From Nitrospirota bacterium (GTDB lineage Bacteria > Nitrospirota > Thermodesulfovibrionia > Thermodesulfovibrionales > SM23-35): DNA of 64,000 nt. The DNA lies in contig JBFLZS010000004.1 of the NCBI GenBank assembly GCA_040756135.1, forward strand, positions 7,469-71,468, written 5' to 3'. The translations under genes were made by a program, and so were the position numbers. Below the pieces are notes generated by a model. That model was not told the DNA's origin, searched no databases, and was given only the letters and a program-made list of their open reading frames with translations. Below, piece after piece: positions 44,003-64,000 of the stretch. Numbering within the stretch: position 1 is the stretch's first letter; every line of letters starts with the position of its first letter.

Positions 44003-44110
44003 GTCATTGTCCGGCTTGACCGGACAATCCATGGTTCTACAAGCTCACCATGACAATTGTCACCCTGAGCCTGCCGAAGGGTGGATTCCCCGATCAAGTC
44101 GGGGAATGAC
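44003..44110. repeat. GTCATTGYCC hairpin doublet (family B) with a central GTCACCCTGAGCCTGCCGAAGGGTG module
   Basis: GTCATTGTCCGGcttgaCCGGACAATCCATGG ... GGATTCCCCGAtcaagTCGGGGAATGAC. Confidence 0.7.
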
Positions 44111-44261
44111 GGAATATTCAATTTGCAATTTATACATAGACTCTACGGAGTTTTAACAAGACTTAAAAAACTGTCAGAAGATAGAGGAATTAGCAGTATA
44201 AATAGGCTAATGACAACGGAACCACTCCCGATGTATAATTTTGCTAAAAGGGGTTTTTCAT

Positions 44262-58922: not shown

Positions 58923-59000
58923 TTTTGTGTAATTCTCCTTCTATATCTTTTATCTTCTTTGAAAACTTACTAAGACGGCCATAAGTAAGGATACATGATC

Positions 59001-59069
59001 GTCATTGCCCGACTTGATCGGGCAATCCAGAGAAAGGAACTGGATTCTCCGGTTGAGCCGGAGAATGAC
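59001..59069. repeat. GTCATTGCCC hairpin doublet (family B)
   Basis: GTCATTGCCCGActtgaTCGGGCAATCCAG ... CTGGATTCTCCGGttgaGCCGGAGAATGAC. Confidence 0.75.
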
Positions 59070-59169: not shown

Positions 59170-59889
59170 CTACTCTCCAAGATAGGCATTCCTTACCTTT
59201 TCATTTCTTAACAACTCTTCACCGATGCCTTGCAGTACCAACCTCCCGTTTTCAAGAACATAACCTCTGTTTGACAGTTTTAAGGCTGCCTTCGCATTCT
59301 GCTCGACAAGGAGAATTGTAACACCTTCACTATTAATTTCTTTTATGGTTTTGAATATCTTGCTCACAATAATAGGTGCAAGCCCGAGAGAAGGCTCATC
59401 CAGAAGAAGAAGCTTAGGATGAGACATAAGTGCCCTGCCTATTGCAAGCATCTGCTGTTCCCCTCCACTCAACGTACCAGCCATCTGTTTATATCTTTCT
59501 TTCAGAATGGGGAAAAGGTTGTACACCATTTCAAGAGAGGATTCAAAATTGCCTCGATTAGAAAATCCTCCCATCTCAAGATTCTCTATTATGGTTAGTT
59601 TAGGAAAAATCCTTCTACCTTCGGGTATCTGGCTTATACCCATTTCAACAATCCTATGAGGAGGAATTCCTTTAATACTTTCCCCATTAAATACAATATC
59701 ACCTGAAAAAGGTCTCAATATCCCGGATATCGTCATAAGTGTTGTAGATTTTCCGGCCCCATTGCTCCCGATGAGGCAGACTATTTCACCATGTTCGACT
59801 TCTATATCAATACCCTTTAAAGCCTCAATAGGGCCGTAGGATACATGAACATCAACAAGCTTTAGCATAGCCTCTATTTGCATGGACAA
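59170..59889 (-). CDS. livF: branched-chain amino acid ABC transporter ATP-binding protein LivF
   Basis: Walker A GSNGAGKST, signature LSGGEQQ, Walker B LLLLDEPS and C-terminal AYLGE. The true start may be the downstream ATG giving MLKLVDVHVSYG. Confidence 0.9.
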   Translation of the reverse strand: MSMQIEAMLKLVDVHVSYGPIEALKGIDIEVEHGEIVCLIGSNGAGKSTTLMTISGILRPFSGDIVFNGESIKGIPPHRIVEMGISQIPEGRRIFPKLTIIENLEMGGFSNRGNFESSLEMVYNLFPILKERYKQMAGTLSGGEQQMLAIGRALMSHPKLLLLDEPSLGLAPIIVSKIFKTIKEINSEGVTILLVEQNAKAALKLSNRGYVLENGRLVLQGIGEELLRNEKVRNAYLGE

Positions 59890-59901
59890 GAAATAATTTC
59901 T

Positions 59902-61248
59902 CTACCATATACAATTACATTTAATTTGTTCATATTCCATCTTCAGACTATTCCACATAGCTATTGTTTCTTTGCAAAGAGCAACCTTATTGTAATTATG
60001 TTTTGATTTCAGGTGTTTTATTATTGTCGAGTACATTGTAAATCGTGTTTGAAAATCAATCTTTTTGCCCCAATTAGAAGATTCTCTTAAATACTTAACC
60101 CAGCTTTTATCTGAACAGCCATTAATAGTGCTTTGCAGCCCCCTTAAAGAACCGAGAGTAATTCGTTCCGGGAAAAGATGCTCAAAAATTAAATCTACCA
60201 ATTGCAAATAGGATTCTTCCCATCCATCTATTGGAACCATTGGATCTATTCTAAGCCTGACTTCATATCCTGCATGGTAAACCTTTTTTGCTGCCTCGAT
60301 TCTCTTTAAAACAGGAGGTGCTTTCTTCTCCCACATTTTGGCAACAGGTATAGCATTGAGACTAAAGCTTATAATTACTTGACCGTGTGGTTCAAGTTCT
60401 AAAAGATTTTTTACATTGATGGATTTGGTTAAAAATAAAACTTTATGTAGTTTTTGAGTTTGAAATATGGGAATAATGAATTTTGAAAATGGGGATCCGC
60501 CATTTTCAGACATTAGTGAATCAGCAATTTCACCCGTATTTAGGACTTCTGGTGTCTCGACCTCCTCTAAAAATCTTCTGGTATGTTGTTCTATTTTCTC
60601 ATAAGACTTGACCACAGGTTCTTTGCCATTAGGTCTGAATCTAAAAGTCCCTTTTAAATAACACCAGCTACAGTCATAGGGACAGCCATAAGCCCACTTA
60701 AGTTCAAGAAAATGAGGGCAAACTACATCAGTTGATTTCTCAGGGGAAGGCGTCTTATCAAATCTTATAATTATAGAGCCATCATTGACTCGCTCCACCA
60801 ATATTTCTTTTTTACCGCTAAGTTGTGGATATTCCTTATAATAAATTTTTGGCTTTAAGGTTTGCTTAGGAATGAAGAATAAAAATTCAGCAGTTGCAGG
60901 GTTATTTTGTGGAAATATTATTCTATCCTGTTCACTCAATCCTCTTAGAGTTTTAGAAGTGATTCTTTCTATTTTAACTTTATTTTTCTTTTCTAATTCT
61001 TTAAGTGCCTCTCTATAGTGTTTATCAATATAAGGTGGTTCAGAATACCAAGGTTCGCATACTTCTTCCTGGATTTTTTCATATTCTATAACTCTTCCTT
61101 TAAACCGCTCCAATAAATGCTTCTTTAAATCGTCAATGTTGTTTATGTCAAATAGTTTAGTTTGATACCTTGCTGCTAAATCTTTAGGGCCCAGATATGC
61201 AAAATTACCCTCTGCACTTTGATTATACATAATGTTTTTCATTGACAT
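59902..61248 (-). CDS. radical SAM protein, spore-photoproduct-lyase-like core with a roughly 170-aa uncharacterised N-terminal domain
   Basis: 448 aa with the cluster motif GCPYDCSWCYLKG (CxxxCxxC) at about residue 190. The C-terminal 260 aa are SPL/SplB-like by recall, and the N-terminal region was not assigned. Confidence 0.6.
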   Translation of the reverse strand: MSMKNIMYNQSAEGNFAYLGPKDLAARYQTKLFDINNIDDLKKHLLERFKGRVIEYEKIQEEVCEPWYSEPPYIDKHYREALKELEKKNKVKIERITSKTLRGLSEQDRIIFPQNNPATAEFLFFIPKQTLKPKIYYKEYPQLSGKKEILVERVNDGSIIIRFDKTPSPEKSTDVVCPHFLELKWAYGCPYDCSWCYLKGTFRFRPNGKEPVVKSYEKIEQHTRRFLEEVETPEVLNTGEIADSLMSENGGSPFSKFIIPIFQTQKLHKVLFLTKSINVKNLLELEPHGQVIISFSLNAIPVAKMWEKKAPPVLKRIEAAKKVYHAGYEVRLRIDPMVPIDGWEESYLQLVDLIFEHLFPERITLGSLRGLQSTINGCSDKSWVKYLRESSNWGKKIDFQTRFTMYSTIIKHLKSKHNYNKVALCKETIAMWNSLKMEYEQIKCNCIW

Positions 61249-61250
61249 TT

Positions 61251-61577
61251 TTATTCTCTCTCGAGATATTTTACAATCCTTCTTGCAATCTCAAAAACAG
61301 CAGCAAGCTGGGTAGCTTTGACCTCTTTTAAGCCCTTAATCTGCATTAACTCTTTCAGTGATATTCCCATAAGCCCATATAAAGAATGATACTTCTCTAA
61401 TATTTCATCCGCAATATTCTGCGCTGACTTGCCTTTTACTCCAGAGCTTAAAATTATTGCTAAAAGTTCACTTTCAGTGCATGAATCCGGCCCAAGCCTT
61501 CGAAATTTGCCCCCCGGATGTTTCCAAGAGACATTCTTATTATCTTTTGTTCCTGATAAAGCAACATCCTTTTCCAT
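61251..61577 (-). CDS. RadC N-terminal (helix-hairpin-helix) domain-only protein, lacking the JAB/MPN domain
   Basis: 108 aa, ESELLAIILSSGVKGKSAQNIADEILEKYHSLYGLMGISLKELMQIKGLKEVKATQLAAVFEIARR, which matches the RadC N-terminal consensus. It stops 2 nt before the rSAM start. Confidence 0.65.
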   Translation of the reverse strand: MEKDVALSGTKDNKNVSWKHPGGKFRRLGPDSCTESELLAIILSSGVKGKSAQNIADEILEKYHSLYGLMGISLKELMQIKGLKEVKATQLAAVFEIARRIVKYLERE

Positions 61578-61719
61578 AGTTATATGTCCTCTAAATAAAT
61601 TAGCAATAGTTTACTCGATAAGCTTTTCTCTTGCTCTCTCAACTTTTGGCCAATCCGGAATCTTCAATCTATATTCAGCCATGCCTTAATTATTTTCTAT
61701 AAACCCTTTTGCAACAAAT

Positions 61720-62163
61720 TCACTTTATCAACGAATTTAATAATTCCTTCATCTTATTTAAAAATTCTGATGCAGATTTCACCGCCTGTTCTGCTTCCTC
61801 GTCTGTTGAGAAAAAACTTAAATCATACTGGTCGTTATGCCTTATTTCCCTGTGGTGATCAAGTAAATCAACCCATTTCTTTTTAAGTTTTTTTGTCTTG
61901 ACATATTTTTCTTCAAGATATCTGGCAACGCAGGCATGACTTTTTTCCCTAAAACCATCAAAGAACAGGATTGCTCTTGCAGAATGAAACATAACCATGT
62001 AAGATGCAAGGACAGAAGAATCAAATGCTTCACTTTTAAGTGTCTTTTCTGCCTCTTTTAACCATTTTTCTGACCTTTCGATGGAACGGAATGCCTTCTC
62101 TCTTGAAGGCGGAATTTTCCTTAATAATCCCTCACTTATGCAGTCATTATAACTGAATGCCAC
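61720..62163 (-). CDS. HEPN-domain protein (toxin partner of upstream NTase)
   Basis: 147 aa, all-helical, with an R-x4-H region (HHREIRHNDQY). It overlaps the NTase gene by 17 nt. Confidence 0.7.
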   Translation of the reverse strand: MAFSYNDCISEGLLRKIPPSREKAFRSIERSEKWLKEAEKTLKSEAFDSSVLASYMVMFHSARAILFFDGFREKSHACVARYLEEKYVKTKKLKKKWVDLLDHHREIRHNDQYDLSFFSTDEEAEQAVKSASEFLNKMKELLNSLIK

Positions 62164-62686
62164 CTTTATCTCCGTATATGATTATTGAGCCAAAAGCCAA
62201 TGAATGATAGAATAGTGTATCCTCTTTTTTTAATTTCTCAATCTTTTTATCAGTCAAAAAAAGAATCCTTAAGTTCTTTATTGCTTTGTTTAATTCTGAT
62301 GTTAAGGCAGCCTGTTTCTCTTCACTTGTTTCTCCAATCATTATCCATAAATCAACATCCGAATCTTCATTATTTTCACCTTTTGCACAACTTCCATATA
62401 ATCCCACCGATTTAATAAAAGGGTATTTTTCAAATATTTTTGTACTGATATGATTTATGTTTAATAATATCCTAATTCCTTTCGTTACTGAGGAATTATT
62501 TATGACAAATTTTCCATTTGACTTTTTGGCTATACCTTCTTTTACCAAAATGTCAAAATATTTAGAAACAAGTCCCTTGCTCAGTTTAAGTTGATTTGCA
62601 ATATTATTAACACTGATGTTATCTCTTTTATAGATAACAGTTTCAAGGATTCTTATTCTTTCTCTCGTTGAAAATATATTTTCCAT
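62147..62686 (-). CDS. nucleotidyltransferase-domain protein with N-terminal winged HTH (MNT-type antitoxin)
   Basis: wHTH (ISVNNIANQLKLSKGLVSKYFDILVKEGI) and the NTase motif GLYGSCAKGENNEDSDVDLWI. Confidence 0.75.
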   Translation of the reverse strand: MENIFSTRERIRILETVIYKRDNISVNNIANQLKLSKGLVSKYFDILVKEGIAKKSNGKFVINNSSVTKGIRILLNINHISTKIFEKYPFIKSVGLYGSCAKGENNEDSDVDLWIMIGETSEEKQAALTSELNKAIKNLRILFLTDKKIEKLKKEDTLFYHSLAFGSIIIYGDKGGIQL

Positions 62687-62946
62687 GTTCCCATCACATA
62701 AACTAATTGTTCACGATTTATGAACTTATCGTTCATATTTTATGAACACTTTATGCTTTTGTCAAATGTTATCTTTAGGTTAATCCTTCATTGCTTTTTC
62801 ACTTGTCCATTTTGGATATTATTATTCTTTAAGATGGGCCAATCTGGAATCTTCAATTTTTATTCAGCTCTATGAATTATTGACTATGTCCGCCGCTCTG
62901 AGATTCAGAGTTTCTTTGCTTTGCAACAACTTATTCGTTTGATTTT

Positions 62947-63294
62947 TCAAATGAAATCGAATAGATAATCAGTTGGATTTTCTTTGGGCCATTCTGAGAC
63001 ATATTCTAAAATCGCATCTGCAATCCCTTTAAAATCGTTCAGTTTGTAAGACGATGAGACTATCAGTACTCCTTTATGTGATATATTACTTGCGAAAAAT
63101 TGACGGGTAAGAATGATGTAATCGTTTCTGTTTCGAGTTATGAAGCAACGCTTCTCTAAGGCTGCATATTCTAATTGTTCCTGATCTGTAAATCCTGTTC
63201 GTCCAAGCTCATGCACGCTAATAGCATCTATGCCCTTCTCTCTGAGGATAACTGCTATTTGTGGGCTCAGGTCTTCATCCAGGAGAAGCTTCAT
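62947..63294 (-). CDS. DUF5615-type PIN-like toxin
   Basis: MKLLLDEDLSPQIAVILREKGIDAISVHELG..D. It overlaps the upstream DUF433 gene by 4 nt. Confidence 0.7.
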   Translation of the reverse strand: MKLLLDEDLSPQIAVILREKGIDAISVHELGRTGFTDQEQLEYAALEKRCFITRNRNDYIILTRQFFASNISHKGVLIVSSSYKLNDFKGIADAILEYVSEWPKENPTDYLFDFI

Positions 63295-63707
63295 CCCTTC
63301 TTCCTGACAAATGGAAGTTCAGAATGGGCTTTCTCCTTACTCCATGCCCTGTTCATCTCTATCAATTTTTTTATTTCATCAGGATAGGTCTTTGCATACC
63401 CAATTGCTGCCATGATCTGTCTGTCTGTAAGCCAGTGAAATGTCTCTTTTAAGGCATGGATATCATTATTGAGTTCCTGATAGGCTGATATAAGTTCCCA
63501 GACATCTATCCCTGTACCTTCAATCCGCGCACGCCTTCCTGCAGGTCCATCAACAAAGACTATCCCGGGACACTTCCTCATCTTCACGGCTTCAGTAATT
63601 AGTTCTGATGTGAGACTTGAGAAAGTTTCTTTTTTTGTGTGTAGAAGGCTTTCAACATCAGATAAAGTCTTTTTATCTATACGAATACTCTTAACGACAC
63701 TACTCAT
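63291..63707 (-). CDS. DUF433-domain antitoxin-like protein
   Basis: CPGIVFVDGPAGRRARIEGTGIDVWELISAY, a DUF433-type core. GGAGGGG lies 4-10 nt upstream of the start. Confidence 0.7.
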   Translation of the reverse strand: MSSVVKSIRIDKKTLSDVESLLHTKKETFSSLTSELITEAVKMRKCPGIVFVDGPAGRRARIEGTGIDVWELISAYQELNNDIHALKETFHWLTDRQIMAAIGYAKTYPDEIKKLIEMNRAWSKEKAHSELPFVRKKG

Positions 63708-63718
63708 TTTCCCCTCCG

Positions 63719-63870
63719 TATATTAAAGGTCTCATAATTGAATTGACATTTATCAGAAAATCTCCCCTTGCCCCTCTTTGCCAAAGAGGGGTATTATTCC
63801 TCCCTTTGGCAAAGGGAGGTTAGGAGGGATTTTATAAATTATTGTATTCATTTTTTAGACTGTTAATAAG
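63719..63870. mobile_element. MITE-like element family A, copy 5
   Basis: TATTAAAGGTCTCATAATTG..TCTCCCCTTGCCCCTCTTTGCCAAAGAGGGG..CCTCCCTTTGGCAAAGGGAGGTTAGGAGGGATTTTATAAA..TTTTAGACTGTTAATAAG. Confidence 0.85.
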
Positions 63871-63926
63871 TATATGTATACATCATACTACATTGTAATA
63901 TTATACTTGTCAAGACACAACACCTT

Positions 63927-64000
63927 TCAATATTCCTTACCAAGATAAGCCTCTATAACCATCTTATCCGTCTTTATATCTGCTGGTAGCCCTTCAGCAA
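63927..64000 (-). CDS. livG: partial ABC transporter ATP-binding protein, LivG-like C-terminus (runs off right edge)
   Basis: The reverse strand reads ..AEGLPADIKTDKMVIEAYLGKEY*, the typical LivG/LivF C-terminal AYLG motif. Confidence 0.55.
   Translation of the reverse strand, partial: AEGLPADIKTDKMVIEAYLGKEY

Follow-up and report, generated by a model that had tools for sequence, protein, structure and literature searches.

The window analyzed here is a stretch of 64,000 nt from a Nitrospirota bacterium (contig JBFLZS010000004.1, positions 7,469 to 71,468), taken from a contig of a metagenome-assembled genome (MAG). Near its right-hand end livG and livF, the two ABC-transporter ATPase genes of a liv operon, are separated by ∼4.04 kb of DNA that carries a miniature inverted-repeat transposable element (MITE) and six open reading frames (ORFs), the last of which encodes a radical S-adenosylmethionine (SAM) protein. 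We consider it likely that this segment was inserted between the two genes, that it accreted as a mosaic, that the radical SAM gene within it is what a deletion left behind, and that livF is now transcribed by read-through. The insertion itself, the mosaic homologies of the segment, the chimeric junction at the start of the radical SAM gene and the absence of the TcmP domain that its relatives carry are directly supported.

The original prediction, made from the letters of the window, had placed an accessory segment of ∼4 kb between livG and livF genes that are normally adjacent, and comparison with relatives bears this out. A LivF scan over one genome per species gave 80 loci, 74 of which show both livG and livF. 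The two genes are adjacent in every one of these 74 loci, across phyla, with alignment gaps of −1 to 223 nt, and the segment in the window is therefore an insertion. The top matches of the scan come from Nitrospirota and Thermodesulfovibrionales MAGs, and the window LivF is 84–92% identical to that of the Nitrospirota relatives L001 and L002 (84% in the case of L002). In L002 the order is livH-livM-livG-livF-livK-pfk, with 6 nt from the livG stop to the livF ATG, and in other relatives livG and livF overlap (TAATG) or abut, which gives a native spacer of 0–12 nt. Downstream of livF, the synteny with livK and pfk is retained in the window. The relatives were also checked for the window's own gene order as a possible ancestral state, and they show adjacent livG-livF instead.

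At the right edge, where the original prediction had seen the end of livG with its stop at 63927, the 24 codons AEGLPADIKTDKMVIEAYLGKEY correspond to the C terminus AEGLPADIRKDKMVIEAYLGREH of the 257-aa LivG of L002, the closest complete relative. The two C termini agree and, as far as 23 residues and synteny reach, this edge ORF is livG. The shared sequence TGAAAG that follows the livG stop sets the left edge of the insertion. The content of guanine plus cytosine (GC) is 0.27–0.37 over 59.8–63.0 kb, compared with about 0.41–0.45 in the flanks; the part that carries the DUF433 and DUF5615 genes is host-like (0.40–0.45), and the GC of the island is heterogeneous. No repeats were found at the island edges, only the internal MITE carries TTAA flanks, and neither the ORF list nor a domain scan revealed an integrase, transposase or recombinase among the island ORFs. 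It is almost certain that the 4.04 kb were inserted into what had been an intergenic gap of just a few bases. All six ORFs were confirmed at their minus-strand positions, in the gene content and order given by the original prediction, and the features of the region are as follows.

63927 to 64000, minus strand: 3′ end of livG, last 23 codons and TGA stop (63929–63927), reading AEGLPADIKTDKMVIEAYLGKEY*
63885 to 63913, minus strand: promoter-like TTGACA-17-TAGTAT (consensus 10/12), just within the island and preceding both the MITE and the DUF433 gene
63727 to 63862, no strand assigned: MITE of 136 nt with TTAA on both sides (63723–63726 and 63863–63866) and two internal G/C-rich palindromes
63291 to 63707, minus strand: DUF433-like gene, 138 aa, putative antitoxin (Pfam 21.7 bits and PDB 2GA1)
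62947 to 63294, minus strand: DUF5615 PIN-like gene, 115 aa, putative toxin (Pfam DUF5615, 64 bits)
62837 to 62868, minus strand: radC 5′-end stub B, a 32-nt direct repeat of 61648–61679
62737 to 62765, minus strand: promoter-like TTGACA-17-TAAAAT upstream of the nucleotidyltransferase gene (11/12, the best of the region)
62147 to 62686, minus strand: winged helix-turn-helix (wHTH)-fused minimal nucleotidyltransferase (MNT), 179 aa (Pfam Polbeta and NTP_transf_2)
61720 to 62163, minus strand: HEPN gene, 147 aa, of the PF05168/UPF0332 type (Pfam HEPN, 68 bits)
61611 to 61682, minus strand: radC 5′-end stub A, a 23-codon ORF MAEYRLKIPDWPKVEREREKLIE* (from the repeat and comparison with radC)
61251 to 61577, minus strand: RadC-N-only gene, 108 aa (UPF0758_N, a helix-hairpin-helix domain, 62 bits; no JAB domain)
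61243 to 61250, minus strand: chimeric junction from the methyltransferase start to radical SAM codon ∼261 (from alignment, blastn and tblastn)
59902 to 61248, minus strand: radical SAM remnant, 448 aa (GMT-wHTH, SPL and Radical_SAM domains, SPL being the spore photoproduct lyase family)
59170 to 59868, minus strand: livF, with the conserved MLKL start at 59868 and alternative upstream starts at 59883 (ATG) and 59889 (TTG)

The 448-aa radical SAM gene named in the original prediction stands as an ORF and as a family member: it scores 74 bits against Pfam SPL (E 1e-20) and 36 bits against GMT-wHTH, and it retains a radical SAM CxxxCxxC motif (GCPYDCSWCY) that aligns with the SPL cluster motif. 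As a gene it is, however, a 5′-truncated chimeric remnant without TcmP, and no methyltransferase follows the RadC-N gene ahead of it. Most of its best 120 homologues are 700–720 aa long and align over the full query, the closest being 65–92% identical. In both homologues examined, P0002 and P0030, the N-terminal extension of ∼260 residues is a TcmP domain (TIGR04474, 209 bits vs. a cut-off of 53), and the TcmP extension of these fusions is matched by PADLOC PDC-M30A at E 1e-37. When P0002, which is 86% identical, was compared with the window by tblastn, only its residues 261–706 were recovered; TcmP, either as a domain or as a separate gene, was not found by tblastn in the whole 64-kb window, and a domain scan of the island gave no DNA methyltransferase or restriction gene adjoining the remnant.

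The point of joining can be read from the relatives. The window shares the 3′ end of RadC-N and the following TAA-AA-ATGTCA with contigs L088 and L089, in which this ATG starts an 849-aa methyltransferase. From ATGAAAAAC onward, which lies at codon ∼261 in the full-length radical SAM gene, it instead follows the sequence of Logan contig L081. The blastn homology to L081 starts at 61243 and is confined to 61243–60006 (88% DNA identity), and the tblastn matches to relatives all begin at residue 3 of the ORF. The 448-aa ORF is an in-frame chimera, in which the start codon of a lost methyltransferase gene has been joined to a gene for a ∼705-aa radical SAM protein at codon ∼261 of the latter. Just upstream of the full-length gene, L081 encodes the C terminus of a methyltransferase belonging to the family of the L088 protein, with 73% identity over 120 aa to residues 730–849 of that protein. 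From these junctions we infer an ancestral three-gene order of RadC-N, methyltransferase and TcmP-wHTH-radical SAM, and a deletion that would have removed about 3.4 kb, made up of methyltransferase (2544 nt), spacer (73 nt) and TcmP (780 nt) sequence.

The RadC-N-only gene, which the original prediction had also listed, represents a stand-alone family rather than merely a broken radC. Its homologues number 265 at 65–90% identity, and nearly all of the best 120 listed are 93–132 aa long and contain PF20582 alone. The alternative that the gene is a 3′-truncated radC pseudogene was rejected, the homologues being almost all ∼109 aa in length. The protein resembles RadC (UPF0758) in its homologous N-domain, which covers positions 3–83 of the 212 in the NCBIfam RadC model, and differs from it in having no JAB/MPN domain (PF04002) and in belonging to a conserved ∼109-aa family whose genes lie 2 nt before the gene of a large DNA methyltransferase. 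It is 35% identical to the full-length radC found in the same contigs. In L088 (5001–7882) and L089 (5001–7879) the gene that begins 2 nt after RadC-N encodes 849 aa with an N6_N4 DNA methyltransferase domain; its long C-terminal part had been recorded as NmeDI_C, a match that was not reproduced with the Pfam copy used. The order RadC-N then methyltransferase was seen in two distinct contexts and three loci (L088, and L089 together with L090), and in L090 the methyltransferase gene is cut by the contig end. A full-length radC of 233 aa lies 1.7 kb upstream of the RadC-N gene in both L089 and L090.

Two small gene pairs make up the rest of the coding content. The first gene of the upstream pair scores 21.7 bits against Pfam DUF433, where the cut-off is 23.6, and matches the DUF433 structure PDB 2GA1 with E 3e-4 over residues 27–116. 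The second is named a DUF5615 family PIN-like protein by NCBI and scores 64 bits for DUF5615 and 24 bits for PIN_10. The two genes overlap by 4 nt. They resemble the predicted type II toxin-antitoxin pairs of DUF433 and DUF5615 in being small overlapping genes with DUF433 upstream and DUF5615/PIN_10 downstream, and differ from them in that the DUF433 protein of the window has an N-terminal extension of ∼55 aa and a score just below the Pfam cut-off. In the second pair the MNT gene lies upstream of the HEPN gene and overlaps it by 17 nt. The MNT protein has helix-turn-helix matches at residues 5–60 and contains the GSx10DxD motif (GSCAKGENNEDSDVD), while the HEPN protein is matched by the HEPN proteins of PDB entries 9XBD and 2HSB. 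In PADLOC the two adjacent genes fit the A and B models of the candidate system PDC-M05 (MNT as PDC-M05A, E 2e-9; HEPN as PDC-M05B, E 1e-5). The gene order, the overlap and the GSx10DxD motif are those of MNT/HEPN pairs, for which the HepT/MntA type VII toxin-antitoxin system offers a comparison. In contrast to that system, the MNT of the window has an N-terminal wHTH and scores 31.9 bits against the NCBIfam MntA model NF047752, for which the cut-off is 60, and the HEPN protein, with REIRHNDQYD as its local candidate for an Rx4-6H motif, is of the PF05168/UPF0332 type rather than the DUF86 type of HepT. Assignment of the pair to HepT/MntA was dropped on the grounds of the HEPN type and the sub-threshold MntA score. 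Both pairs probably remain intact, and their putative activity is read from family membership.

The segment had been described beforehand as a defence or addiction island, and a PADLOC run had been proposed as a check. That run recognizes the MNT/HEPN pair as candidate PDC-M05, which is the part of the description that holds; a single coherent defence island is not supported, with no integrase or transposase in the segment and no PADLOC match for the other four proteins, namely the 448-aa ORF product, RadC-N, DUF433 and DUF5615. For DUF433, DUF5615 and RadC-N, searches of PADLOC, PHROGs and NCBIfam added nothing beyond the family names.

The consequences for livF can be outlined from the distribution of candidate signals. 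The livF ORF matches Pfam ABC_tran and BCA_ABC_TP_C, its top NCBIfam match is the LivF model, and its ATG at 59868 (MLKL) is the start also used by L003, L005, L007 and L073. From the radical SAM stop to this conserved start there are 33 nt; the gap of 12 nt given in the original prediction is obtained from the most upstream start, the TTG at 59889, and does not apply to the conserved one. Promoter-like sites matching the consensus at 10–11/12 occur on the minus strand only at 63913–63885, 63866–63838 and 62765–62737. The 2.3 kb that precede livF contain no such site, and outside the radical SAM ORF there is no space for one. A consensus scan found no terminator-like hairpin on the minus strand. 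On these candidate signals, livF mRNA is most likely produced by read-through from the liv promoter together with promoters of the island. The earlier statement that livF must depend on read-through is plausible in this light, with no terminator-like site on that strand and no space for a promoter, though as a probability and not as a "must".

Several observations weigh against the reading of the segment as an inserted, partly decayed mosaic with a deletion remnant. The source is a MAG, and the island junctions are those of its assembly. The activity of the two pairs is a prediction, and the DUF433 and MntA scores lie below the curated cut-offs. Matches to the promoter and terminator consensus do not outnumber those in shuffled sequence, and the promoters of Nitrospirota may be different. 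The three genes of the putative ancestral module were not found together on any contig, and the chimera could instead have arisen through illegitimate joining of two loci. The remnant ORF is fully open, with a ratio of nonsynonymous to synonymous substitution rates (dN/dS) of 0.068 and a dS of 0.62 against L081 over 1237 nt, which points either to a recent deletion or to continuing selection on the remnant. Moreover, L092 (2110–3916) holds an independent TcmP-less copy of 442 aa that breaks within ∼30 nt of the same methionine (MKNIM), an orphan that is flanked by clpB and mutS and lacks partner genes, and stand-alone radical SAM cores of 290–350 aa are common among distant relatives. The remnant may thus still be functional, though we judge this rather unlikely.

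The same observations lend themselves to the alternative of a working defence or addiction island whose modules are all active, with RadC-N and the 448-aa protein forming a self-sufficient two-gene DNA-targeting system. In addition to the low dN/dS, the N-terminal boundary shared with the L092 short form and the frequency of stand-alone cores, this alternative can draw on the six intact ORFs on one strand, the retained CxxxCxxC motif and the fit of MNT/HEPN to PDC-M05. What makes it unlikely is that RadC-N precedes a methyltransferase, and not a radical SAM gene, in both contexts and all three loci, that the start of the 448-aa ORF is borrowed from the methyltransferase, and that the closest relatives are mostly ∼700 aa long, those examined having the TcmP domain that the window lacks. 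PADLOC matches four of the six proteins to nothing, and the L092 short form is itself an orphan. That the wHTH and SPL-like radical SAM part, restarted from the methyltransferase codon, has been kept by selection is likewise doubtful. If it were true, the TcmP-radical SAM family would amount to a modular restriction-modification accessory that acts on DNA and whose catalytic half is able to work alone, and the RadC-N-only protein would be a small DNA-binding companion of the radical SAM protein. Under the preferred reading of a deletion remnant, with neither the modification enzyme nor the TcmP partner left, the original function of the RadC-N and radical SAM portion has most likely been lost.

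The mosaic character of the segment is seen around the MNT/HEPN pair, which is bracketed by 32-nt direct repeats (62837–62868 and 61648–61679) of a kind for which zero matches are expected by chance. A metagenome pattern scan identified these repeats as radC 5′ ends by comparison with the intact radC starts of contigs L085 and L087, in which the repeat sequence opens an intact radC gene (MAEYRLKIPDWPKDERPRE...). Stub B reads as a radC start (MAEYRLKIPDWP...), and its homology to intact radC stops right after GATTGGCC. The same GATTGGCC breakpoint occurs in L086 (6415–6449), where a radC stub lies between yggS and a DNA methyltransferase. Stub A keeps about 70 nt of radC, as do contigs L083 and L084 (L083 1774–1805). 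The stubs with the common GATTGGCC breakpoint suggest either site-specific insertion into radC or the reuse of an old stub by recombination. L083 and L084, both from the Lake Tanganyika metagenome, are 86% identical to the window at the DNA level, but only over 61627–62505; this homology comprises the MNT/HEPN pair and about 55 nt beyond, and it ends inside stub A at 61627. In these two contigs the HEPN copy (L083 1877–2289 and L084 908–1320) matches the HEPN of the window in two pieces that overlap and lie in different frames. This copy seems to be frameshifted, and hence another decaying representative of the same module. A reading of the 32-nt repeats as attC sites of integron cassettes was considered and rejected, as they fold no better than shuffled sequence (z 0.2–0.4), are radC coding stubs and are accompanied by no integrase.

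The MITE adds a further component. It is short and noncoding, with terminal inverted repeats (GGTCTCATAAT... and ...TAGACTG), a target-site duplication and 4–5 other copies in the window, at about 16.3, 17.2, 19.8 and 26.8 kb, which are the defining properties of such elements. A 60-nt spacer lies between the livG stop and the MITE. No paralogues of the island genes occur in the rest of the window, and an Rfam scan of 58.8–64.0 kb gave nothing close to any gathering score. Collectively, we are fairly confident that the island is an accreted mosaic, part of it decayed and with a chimeric radical SAM remnant, and not one element.

Entry of the entire 4 kb as a single mobile element in one integration, for instance a radC-targeting element with the 32-nt repeats as its attachment sites, would account for the exact-register direct repeats around MNT/HEPN and for the recurrence of the GATTGGCC breakpoint in the unrelated context of L086. 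As a lead only, Enterococcus radC is reported in PMC7371108 as a context for transposon insertion hotspots. Yet the segment contains no recombinase or transposase, the repeats span 1.2 kb and not the island, and they form no hairpins. Moreover, the parts of the island differ in their closest relatives and in GC, and L003 has the DUF5615 gene beside livF without the other modules between them. Such a single integration is very improbable, and the mosaic remains the preferred account.

The junction between livG and livF is occupied in other members of the lineage as well. Four of 11 Nitrospirota loci hold something else there (L003, L005, L073 and L007). The L003 contig opens inside a DUF5615 gene, of which it retains the final 16 codons (15/16 aa identical to the window), ∼200 nt upstream of livF. 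In L005 (1–660) livF is directly preceded by a DUF4926 gene (84 bits) and by a short fragment similar to the N terminus of another radical SAM protein, and livG does not occur within 660 nt. L073 (7583–7801) and L007 (9846–10000) carry livG-livF inserts of 223 nt and 168 nt, respectively, both with terminal inverted repeats of 19–26 nt; these inserts are MITE-like and unrelated to the MITE of the window. The junction of L002 is clean, though L002 is closer to the window than L003, whose junction is occupied; this pattern therefore points to gain and loss, and not to a single ancestral event. The livG-livF junction is a recurrent permissive site in this Nitrospirota lineage, with differing cargo.

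That the MAG assembly is chimeric here, or that the arrangement is ancestral and was lost by relatives, is extremely unlikely: the window does come from a MAG contig, the contig of the closest relative, L001, does break inside livF, and a multicopy MITE sits at one island edge, but both island edges lie precisely within the native spacer, on either side of which livG and livF keep their proper order and orientation, two relatives from other samples carry different genes at the same place, and livG-livF adjacency is universal across phyla, so that adjacency is the ancestral state.

The recurrent occupation of this junction has counterparts elsewhere. In E. coli and Pseudomonas, as reported in PMC10121019 and PMC10250203, hotspots of the core genome that lack mobility genes hold defence and accessory genes between conserved genes. 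Measured against these hotspots, the window is alike in its variable cargo at a fixed junction, its toxin-antitoxin and defence-type genes and its lack of an integrase. It is unlike them in that the junction is intra-operon, a spacer of 0–12 nt between translationally coupled ABC-transporter ATPase genes, that the cargo is small and partly degraded, and that the evidence comes from a few MAG contigs and not from a pan-genome. The segment is a small islet of accessory or toxin-antitoxin genes at a core-genome hotspot, unusual for its intra-operon position. In contig L096 (5080–12722) a radical SAM gene, a 271-aa ORF and a methyltransferase lie between argG and argH of an arginine operon, which is a second case of such cargo inside a biosynthetic or transport operon.

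A history that would join these observations begins with a spacer that tolerates and repeatedly attracts insertions, at which a mosaic segment would have accreted. The MNT/HEPN pair would have been imported with a radC 5′ stub and now be bracketed by two stubs. A restriction-modification-linked module would have contributed the RadC-N-only gene, a ∼849-aa DNA methyltransferase fusion and a TcmP-wHTH-SPL-like radical SAM gene of ∼705 aa. A single deletion of ∼3.4 kb may then have removed the methyltransferase from its third codon together with the first ∼260 codons of the radical SAM gene, including TcmP, and the surviving in-frame ORF would be translated from the methyltransferase start codon. 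The two small pairs are probably still modules of the addiction or abortive-infection type, by analogy with their families, and would help to retain the segment, while livF would have lost its tight coupling to livG. In this history, the succession of steps, the working of the pairs, the functional loss and the mode of transcription are inferred.

Other repeats were noted in the window outside the island. A 30-nt inverted-repeat match (93%) connects the livF-livK spacer (59000–59029) with a palindromic element at 44.0–44.1 kb (44082–44111), and probably represents another small repeat family. Intergenic positions between 25400 and 43000 hold many palindromic repeats of the CCCCCCTTTnnnAAAGGGGGG type, which make up families D1 and D2, as well as short tandem runs of the AGTCAGA type.

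The full-length relatives of the remnant occur, in the contigs examined, in type I, II and III restriction-modification operons, as follows.

L093 (1879–8536), L094, L101 (1878–8295) and L102: full-length gene between type III mod and res, with a partial copy in L095
L100 (167–3629): full-length gene after HsdS
L096 (7001–10997) and L097: full-length gene before a 271–292-aa ORF and an N6_N4 methyltransferase, between argG and argH
L081 (1–2476): full-length gene after the 849-aa methyltransferase

On plasmids TcmP, with a wHTH, is a separate gene; it adjoins a radical SAM gene in Halopiger, and on a Streptomyces plasmid it adjoins a Gp37/Gp68 gene and an N-6 methylase. The 448-aa ORF is 86–92% identical to the C-terminal two thirds of the TcmP-wHTH-radical SAM fusions, from which it differs in having neither the TcmP domain nor the PADLOC match (PDC-M30) that comes with it. 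A further comparison is with the spore photoproduct lyase SplB (PF20903, TIGR04070; PDB 4FHC), with which the core is homologous (PDB 4FHE, E 9e-10 over residues 183–354). The scores against the equivalog models fall far short of their cut-offs (TIGR04070, 81 vs. 400 bits; TIGR03886, 57 vs. 438 bits). Unlike SplB, the protein has an extra N-terminal wHTH, to which TcmP is added in relatives, and the context of the family is restriction-modification operons and not sporulation genes. A scan of viral contigs with the full-length protein gave no relatives, and our literature search found no functional study of TcmP, PDC-M30, GMT-wHTH or restriction-modification-linked radical SAM enzymes. By analogy with its core and its neighbors, the family behaves as an uncharacterized restriction-modification accessory that probably acts on DNA.

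For the operon, these findings indicate that a spacer of a few bases in a conserved transporter operon can be a recurrent landing site within one bacterial lineage, uncoupling the two ATPase genes. About half of the segment is wreckage and not a working defence system, and it adds no new system to be counted. The TcmP-radical SAM and RadC-N-only leads are the most reusable outcome, and they concern the relatives rather than the window. That the small RadC-N-only gene is conserved and placed 2 nt before a large methyltransferase gene is a hint of a role in regulation or DNA targeting, and the restriction-modification setting of the TcmP-wHTH-SPL-like fusion provides a concrete context in which to ask what effect it has on DNA.

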